DNA from: Escherichia coli
GTDB taxonomy: Bacteria; Pseudomonadota; Gammaproteobacteria; Enterobacterales; Enterobacteriaceae
Length of the DNA stretch: 4,160 nt
Assembly (NCBI RefSeq): GCF_003334385.1
Contig: NZ_QOWN01000089.1
Strand: one strand, 5' to 3'
Positions within the stretch are counted from its first letter, which is position 1. Each line of letters begins with the position of its first letter. Shown piece by piece: positions 1-546 of this stretch. The notes beneath the pieces were generated by a model. That model saw only the letters and a list, made by a program, of their open reading frames with translations. It was not told the origin of the DNA and did not search any database. The translations under genes were made by a program, and so were the position numbers.

Positions 1-546
1 GCCCTGGGGATAACGGCAAAACAGATTGCTGATGCCACAGGAAAGAAAAACATGGTGTCGCACTGGTTCAGTGCCAGTCAGTGGCAGCTACCGGACGAAA
101 GTGATTATCTGAAATTACAGGCGCTGTTTGCCCGGGTGGCAGAAGAGAAGCATCAGCGGGGTGAACTGGAAAAGCCCCACCACCAGCTGCTGGAGACGTA
201 TACTTCACTGAACCGGCAGTATGCGGAACTGCAGAGTGAATATAAGCTTCTGCGGCGGTATTTTGGCGTGACGGCGCAGGTGTCGTACACGGATGTGTGG
301 ACGCATAAACCGGTGCAGTACTATCCCGGGAAACATCCGTGCGAAAAACCGGCAGAAATGCTGCAGCAGATAATCAGTGCGAGCAGTCGTCCGGGTGACC
401 TGGTTGCAGATTTCTTCATGGGGTCGGGTTCGACAGTCAAAGCCGCGATGGCGCTGGGGCGTCGTGCTACAGGCGTTGAGCTGGAGACTGAACGTTTTGA
501 GCAGACGGTCAGGGAAGTTCAGGATTTAGCCAGTCAGAACGGATGA
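1..546 (+). CDS. DNA methyltransferase, beta-class N6-adenine/N4-cytosine family, C-terminal part (5' end lies outside the window)
   Basis: Frame 1 is open from base 1 with no stop before the listed ATG at 52, so the gene most likely starts upstream. The translation carries the C-terminal signature of N6_N4-type amino-methyltransferases: HPCEKP (nt 334..351) followed by GDLVADFFMGSGST (FxGxG AdoMet-binding motif, nt 412..435). The catalytic DPPY-type motif would lie further N-terminal and is not seen here. Stop TGA at 544..546. Confidence 0.8.
   Translation, partial: ALGITAKQIADATGKKNMVSHWFSASQWQLPDESDYLKLQALFARVAEEKHQRGELEKPHHQLLETYTSLNRQYAELQSEYKLLRRYFGVTAQVSYTDVWTHKPVQYYPGKHPCEKPAEMLQQIISASSRPGDLVADFFMGSGSTVKAAMALGRRATGVELETERFEQTVREVQDLASQNG

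Follow-up and report, generated by a model that had tools for sequence, protein, structure and literature searches.

A prophage gene fragment upstream of three tRNA genes in Escherichia coli most likely belongs to the M.EcoGII family of orphan adenine methyltransferases

We analysed a 4,160-nt stretch of Escherichia coli DNA (contig NZ_QOWN01000089.1, assembly GCF_003334385.1; hereafter the window), finding by sequence comparison that positions 1–546 most likely encode the C-terminal half of a prophage-borne beta-class N6-adenine methyltransferase of the M.EcoGII/M.EcoGI family. Our best overall account, to which we give a probability of roughly 80%, is of an M.EcoGII-family orphan enzyme that would be silent in the lysogen, depend on the antiterminator Q for its expression, and methylate phage DNA broadly against restriction. 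The identity of this methyltransferase is already known, as the family is well characterised and very common; the fragment can be annotated simply as an M.EcoGII-family orphan adenine methyltransferase, and its wider importance is limited.

Frame 1 of the plus strand has no stop from the first base of the window until a TGA at 544–546, giving 181 codons of the 3' part of a gene whose 5' part (~513 nt) lies beyond the window's 5' edge. Because the gene runs off this edge, the program-made ORF list, which counts from the first ATG and leaves edge-crossing ORFs unlisted, begins at 52 and shows 52–546 only. The Pfam model N6_N4_Mtase (PF01555) matched fragment residues 71–169 at model positions 114–219 of 221 (E 3e-24), so the ORF is no product of chance but encodes the domain's C-terminal half. 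Both peptides on which the original prediction of a C-terminal beta-class amino-methyltransferase relied were located in the translation: HPCEKP (334–351, residues 112–117), the family's HPxxKP before motif I, and FFMGSGST (412–435, residues 138–145), the motif I FxGxG of the AdoMet-binding loop. In a PDB sequence search, they aligned with HPTQKP and with DPFMGSGTT, motif I, of PDB entries 8urk/9c3u, respectively. When the domain limits of the M.EcoGII AlphaFold model (PMC11551740) are transferred by alignment, positions 1–198 correspond to most of the target-recognition domain (M.EcoGII residues 172–237 of a domain spanning 160–237), 199–264 to the charged linker that leads from it to the C-terminal catalytic part (residues 238–259), and 265–543 to the C-terminal part of the Rossmann-fold catalytic domain with its AdoMet-binding motif (residues 260–349).

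The whole window is 99.0% identical to the chromosome of E. coli JNEC-KY176 and 98.1–98.8% identical to four further genomes. The JNEC-KY176 methyltransferase gene spans 1059 bp and encodes a 352-aa protein that begins MFNTVKISSCELINADCLEFIRSLPENSVDLIVTDPPYF and matches the fragment at 177 of 181 residues. We compared five full-length relatives (JNEC-KY176 and four other loci, including the Stx2 phages Stx2a_WGPS2 and 1720a-02), whose DNA is 97.3–97.8% identical to the methyltransferase segment of the window. All five 352-aa proteins carry DPPY at residues 34–37, N-terminal to the recognition domain and FxGxG, and the motif order of DPPY, central region, and C-terminal FxGxG is the one that defines the beta class. 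The region of catalytic motif IV falls outside the window, with the relatives serving as proxies for it; the original prediction was to fall if the upstream ORF lacked (D/N)PP(Y/F) or belonged to a non-methyltransferase family, and in these five relatives it has the motif and is a methyltransferase. We infer the N-terminal half of the window's own enzyme, including this catalytic motif, from these relatives, and the source copy could be truncated or interrupted upstream of the window.

Searches with the full-length relative gave the same family assignment. The JNEC-KY176 protein matched M.RsrI (2.5e-21), CcrM (2.7e-17), and M1.MboII (4.9e-15) in the PDB, each in two stretches, and also DpnA, with E values of 1e-15 to 1e-21 overall and both halves of the catalytic domain covered. 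PHROG DNA-methyltransferase families matched at E values of 1e-102 to 1e-107, and a PADLOC Type II methyltransferase model at 1e-163; among the PADLOC models, only generic methyltransferase ones matched, and none matched the neighbouring genes. NCBIfam matches fell far under the curated cut-offs (115 bits vs 292; for CcrM, 71 vs 830), indicating that the methyltransferase is no equivalog of YhdJ-type or CcrM-type enzymes.

The methylome literature on E. coli O104:H4 describes two prophage-borne orphan enzymes, M.EcoGI and its paralogue M.EcoGII. M.EcoGII (GenBank EGT69837.1, 349 aa), from a prophage of E. coli O104:H4 C227-11, has the domain order DPPY, recognition domain, FxGxG, and it methylates adenine in all sequence contexts, acting on DNA whether double- or single-stranded and, more weakly, on RNA in vitro (Murray et al. 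2018, PMC5778455). Its recognition domain, residues 160–237 in the AlphaFold model, is a four-helix bundle with a helix-turn-helix, and the protein elutes as a dimer (PMC11551740). Against an M.EcoGII reference machine-read from Suppl. Table S1 of PMC11551740, whose evident reading errors make all of these identities lower bounds, the fragment is identical at 158 of 177 positions (89%) over M.EcoGII residues 172–347 and the full-length relative at 328 of 348 (94%); in the 66 visible residues of the recognition domain, there are 61 identities and five substitutions. The original prediction named the beta class but did not recognise the M.EcoGII family. Searching for exact copies of an M.EcoGII sequence corrected by hand, with three errors fixed, returned no match; the machine-read copy probably holds further errors. 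Reconstructed ancestors keep their non-specificity (PMC11551740), and in our alignment they are 83% and 70% identical to M.EcoGII, which places the window allele well within the range of identity over which this property is kept. The phage 1720a-02 enzyme, which Murray et al. name as very similar to M.EcoGII (PMC5778455), sits at the same genomic position as the window's gene and matches its visible part at 176 of 182 positions, the stop codon counted. We rejected M.EcoGIX as the relevant enzyme, since the literature describes it as a plasmid-borne single-strand-specific methyltransferase.

Comparison of the window segment with the five relatives gave dN/dS values of 0.11–0.21 from only 12–15 substitutions per comparison, with the frame undisturbed. 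These values show purifying selection on the visible part of the methyltransferase, consistent with a functional gene. The gene is widespread: it is present in 1897 of 5426 complete E. coli genomes (about a third), at up to seven copies per genome, and the protein cluster at 90% identity has 5932 members, partial copies among them. A protein search retrieved 96 phage records, including Stx2a, Stx2c, and Stx2d phages, phiP27, mEp460, and SfV, and also reached more remote homologues in phages of Yersinia, Vibrio, and Aeromonas. The phage-borne origin claimed by the original prediction is borne out by Stx2 phages with the same gene and by the lambdoid prophage contexts of the relatives. Identity to JNEC-KY176 is 99.0% over the whole window but 97.8% over the methyltransferase segment. 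Stx2 phages are about as close to this segment (97.4%), yet their esterase region is only ~85% identical, a pattern pointing to a mosaic exchange that involved the methyltransferase-tRNA module.

The methyltransferase is an orphan. As originally noted, none of the window's ORFs resembles a restriction enzyme, and the same holds around the gene in its relatives: no restriction partner lies within 4–14 kb in relatives, none is annotated near the methyltransferase in five contexts and E. coli R10, and the only endonuclease gene annotated in 32 kb of the closest relative is a packaging-associated HNH gene beside the terminase. An adjacent cognate endonuclease, as expected of a Type II restriction-modification system, was found neither in the window nor in any relative examined. 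The relatives' contexts instead have the setting expected of the M.EcoGII family, a lambdoid prophage without a cognate endonuclease.

The original prediction also placed the methyltransferase where Stx phages are expected to carry Q, which is misleading, as a Q-like antiterminator gene lies upstream of it in every methyltransferase-bearing locus that we examined. By PF01555, the window ORF is a methyltransferase and no member of a Q family. Four of the upstream Q-like genes were scored against PHROGs and fell into three Q-like families: a 229-aa Q in JNEC-KY176 (PHROG 304, and Q by RefSeq name), a 186-aa DUF1133 protein in strain 99RCEF (PHROG 753; the same accession is annotated in STEC17-183), and proteins of 113 aa and 126 aa in WGPS2 and 1720a-02, respectively (PHROG 79). 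The fifth locus, E. coli R10, has an "antitermination protein" (RefSeq name) in the same place. Searched against PDB sequences, the 229-aa Q of JNEC-KY176 gave no match, and we assign its identity from PHROG 304 and the RefSeq name.

Aligning four of these contexts, which differ in Q type, showed that the sequence right after Q differs among them and that similarity begins at a terminator made of a hairpin and a T run. Past this terminator, the order is conserved: a 65-aa ORF, a second terminator, the methyltransferase, the putative tRNA promoter pT, and three tRNAs. Upstream of the module are a Q-like gene, a leader of variable sequence, and a terminator; downstream of it come stx2AB or sRNA units, a nanS-p esterase, and lysis genes. 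Ahead of the terminator, 1720a-02 and WGPS2 carry sequence that matches the leader found immediately behind Q in the 933W-like phage TL-2011c; the 933W record marks pR', qut, and a first terminator in the corresponding region. The module of the closest relative is preceded by a promoter-like site (TTGACA, 17 nt, GATACT) and then by two terminators. Taking pR' from similarity to the annotated 933W promoter and from consensus scans, we place the methyltransferase downstream of the probable late promoter and its terminator, where it does not replace Q. The start point of late transcription is most likely upstream of the methyltransferase, and the tRNAs have the putative pT as well.

The stretch between Q and the module varies in content. 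In the closest relative, it holds a MazF/PemK-like toxin gene without an annotated antitoxin (L001 12454–12798), which is missing from the other contexts; WGPS2 has two reverse-strand genes there. The 65-aa ORF (L001 13140–13337) always precedes the methyltransferase gene, 150 bp upstream of it, and is followed by its own terminator. It belongs to PHROG 331 (unknown function), and its Pfam winged-helix matches are weak (TrmB, E 0.0013; MarR_2, 0.017).

The spacer from the methyltransferase stop to the first tRNA (547–586) is exactly 40 nt by ARAGORN, in agreement with the 40 bp first reported, and is 100% identical to that of 933W. It contains, at 549–577 on the plus strand, a stretch (TTGCAG, 17 nt, TATTAT) that is 100% identical to 933W NC_000924 21082–21110, annotated there as "pT; putative tRNA promoter". 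In the related phage region of Sp5, a primary start site appears to drive the tRNAs (PMC7547250). A simple promoter scan of window positions 1–1850 found no plus-strand promoter; pT was missed because its first hexamer matched at only three of six positions. Given pT, the tRNAs may not depend on upstream read-through alone. The three tRNAs, all on the plus strand and supported by ARAGORN, Rfam tRNA, and the RefSeq annotation of a relative, are tRNA-Ile (CAT; ileZ) at 587–662, tRNA-Arg (TCG) at 670–746, and tRNA-Arg (TCT) at 760–836. ARAGORN reads the CAT anticodon of the first as Met, and RefSeq and the 933W record as tRNA-Ile (ileZ); the ileZ anticodon is presumably read as Ile after lysidine modification. 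A terminator-like hairpin (850–867) stands directly after the third tRNA.

Two tandem plus-strand copies of the STnc100 sRNA (RF02076) follow at 970–1178 and 1374–1586, with Rfam scores of 122 and 147 bits against a gathering threshold of 47. Each copy ends in a terminator-like hairpin, and the pair stands between the tRNAs and the esterase, in the place taken by stx2AB in Stx2 phages. A 2026 preprint links STnc100 to the PasD prophage sRNAs. After the second copy, there are convergent terminator-like hairpins, one per strand (1556–1575 and 1593–1614). Further downstream on the plus strand lie a 660-aa SASA-family carbohydrate esterase (1808–3790; a RefSeq name in a relative, DUF6645 in others), recorded in some Stx2 phages as yjhS, 9-O-acetyl-N-acetylneuraminic acid deacetylase; a DUF1378 ORF (3930–4124; RefSeq name in a relative); and the start of a DUF826 ORF (4150–4160). 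Esterase, DUF1378, and DUF826 are the usual lead-in to the holin and lysozyme genes. The closest relative has, nearby, a late gene of the YdfR family that is a pseudogene.

The last 111 nt of the methyltransferase gene (436–546) are kept as a relic in 933W-type Stx2a phages, as we found by local alignment to TL-2011c and 933W. The relic, which would encode VKAAMSLGRRAIGVELETERFEQTVREVQDLVSQNG and the stop, begins ~12 nt past tR' in both phages and lies between tR' and ileZ (L007 2778–2888; L008 ~1501–1611). Among phage records, 249 cover window positions 436–662 and only 34 match positions 1–430. Some phage records label the relic "putative DNA methylase". Because the relic is kept, the 933W layout, which the original prediction took as the norm, looks like a deletion derivative of the window's layout. 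Speculatively, loss of the 1.4-kb terminator-rich module in 933W-type phages might shorten the path from pR' to stx2 and raise toxin output.

By analogy with M.EcoGII, the window's enzyme probably methylates adenine at N6 with AdoMet as the donor, would show little or no preference for sequence, and is a probable homodimer. In the lysogen, it is probably absent, because transcription from pR' would halt at the leader terminator and constitutive M.EcoGII is deleterious. M.EcoGII is reported to be silent in the lysogen, and its constitutive expression yields slow-growing, unstable clones (PMC5778455; review PMC12707154). Given this silence, a comparison of the methylomes of lysogen and cured strain, as originally suggested, would probably show no change. 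Once the prophage is induced, RNA polymerase modified by Q would probably read through the terminators, and the enzyme would be made alongside the late genes. Replicating phage DNA would then be broadly methylated, and the packaged genomes would, on entering the next host, withstand many adenine-sensitive restriction systems. This anti-restriction role, proposed by Murray et al. (PMC5778455) and repeated in a 2025 review (PMC12707154), is one that the literature infers; our literature search returned neither a measurement of virion DNA methylation nor expression data for the methyltransferase gene in Stx or related phages that carry it.

We weighed this account against four others, for which the sole positive evidence is a generic resemblance to the family or the cut edge of the window. 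The gene might encode a sequence-specific orphan methyltransferase acting as an epigenetic regulator in the lysogen, like Dam or CcrM, as the originally suggested methylome comparison implies: CcrM is within the same fold family, the NCBIfam models matched below threshold are for adenine-specific methyltransferases, and the helix-turn-helix of the recognition domain could in principle read sequence. However, the protein is 89–94% identical to a context-free adenine methylase that is silent in lysogens, its NCBIfam scores are those given above, far under the cut-offs, and terminators separate the gene from every candidate upstream promoter, and we consider such a regulator unlikely. A similarly low probability attaches to a decaying or inactive copy whose 5' half is truncated, interrupted, or mutated in the source, as is common in cryptic prophages. 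In favour of decay, the catalytic half lies beyond the window, which stops at residue 172, the gene's 3' end survives as a relic in hundreds of 933W-type phages, the protein cluster has partial members, and the neighbouring YdfR-family gene is a pseudogene in the closest relative; against decay stand the 181 intact codons and low dN/dS, a visible part that far exceeds the 111-nt relic, and the full 352-aa gene in all five closest relatives.

The three tRNA genes and two STnc100 units that adjoin the gene, and the in vitro activity of M.EcoGII on RNA, raise the question of whether RNAs such as these, rather than DNA, are the main substrates in vivo. The initial rate of M.EcoGII is 0.12 on RNA and 11.12 on DNA, about 100-fold lower for RNA (Suppl. 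Table S3, PMC11551740). At the equivalent of residue 179, the window enzyme has Gln whereas the RNA-active engineered SUPREM has Glu, and E179Q cuts the RNA activity of SUPREM 3.4-fold. The tRNAs of 933W-type phages, moreover, persist without the enzyme. RNA as the main substrate therefore seems highly improbable, and some m6A on phage tRNAs and sRNAs or on host RNA during lytic growth would itself be very unlikely. That the gene is the modification half of a restriction-modification system with its endonuclease elsewhere in the prophage is the least probable of these alternatives, at hardly more than negligible odds; the top PADLOC match is a "Type II methyltransferase" model, and some Stx phages do carry a complete system elsewhere (M.EcoGIII with its endonuclease), but apart from the packaging-associated HNH gene, no endonuclease is annotated in the 32 kb of the closest relative or beside the gene in the other contexts examined, and a non-specific methyltransferase is unfit as the usual partner of a site-specific endonuclease.

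Among characterised enzymes, the window's methyltransferase has domain order, prophage location, and absence of a restriction partner in common with M.EcoGII, from which it differs as a 352-aa variant ending in DLASQNG, where M.EcoGII ends in DLIV. Alleles of 349 aa with the M.EcoGII-type C-terminus occur in the same slot elsewhere in E. coli, in the order Q-like gene, 65-aa ORF, methyltransferase, and tRNA-Ile. With M.RsrI, CcrM, M1.MboII, and DpnA (PDB 1eg2, 6pbd, 1g60, and 5hek), it shares the catalytic fold family and motif order, but those enzymes are sequence-specific with unrelated recognition domains, and their matches skip the central region of the window-type protein. Mom of phage Mu would be a functional analogue only, as the protein is unrelated and the chemistry different. 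Mom chemistry we take to be adenine carbamoylmethylation, regulated presumably through Com and Dam/OxyR.

At the level of gene order, the Stx2 phages 1720a-02 and Stx2a_WGPS2, Stx2c phages, and phiP27 carry the same methyltransferase gene (in 1720a-02 and WGPS2, 97.4% identical in nucleotide sequence to the window segment) in the same module, where the 65-aa ORF precedes it and ileZ-argN-argO follow. In those phages, stx2AB comes after the tRNAs, whereas the window has two STnc100 sRNA units there instead and no toxin gene. The Q-pR'-tR'-tRNA-stx2 region of 933W and Sp5 has the identical spacer with pT, the same three tRNAs, and the last 111 nt of the methyltransferase gene, but the rest of that gene and the 65-aa ORF are absent, and Q and pR' stand ~0.4 kb from the tRNAs.
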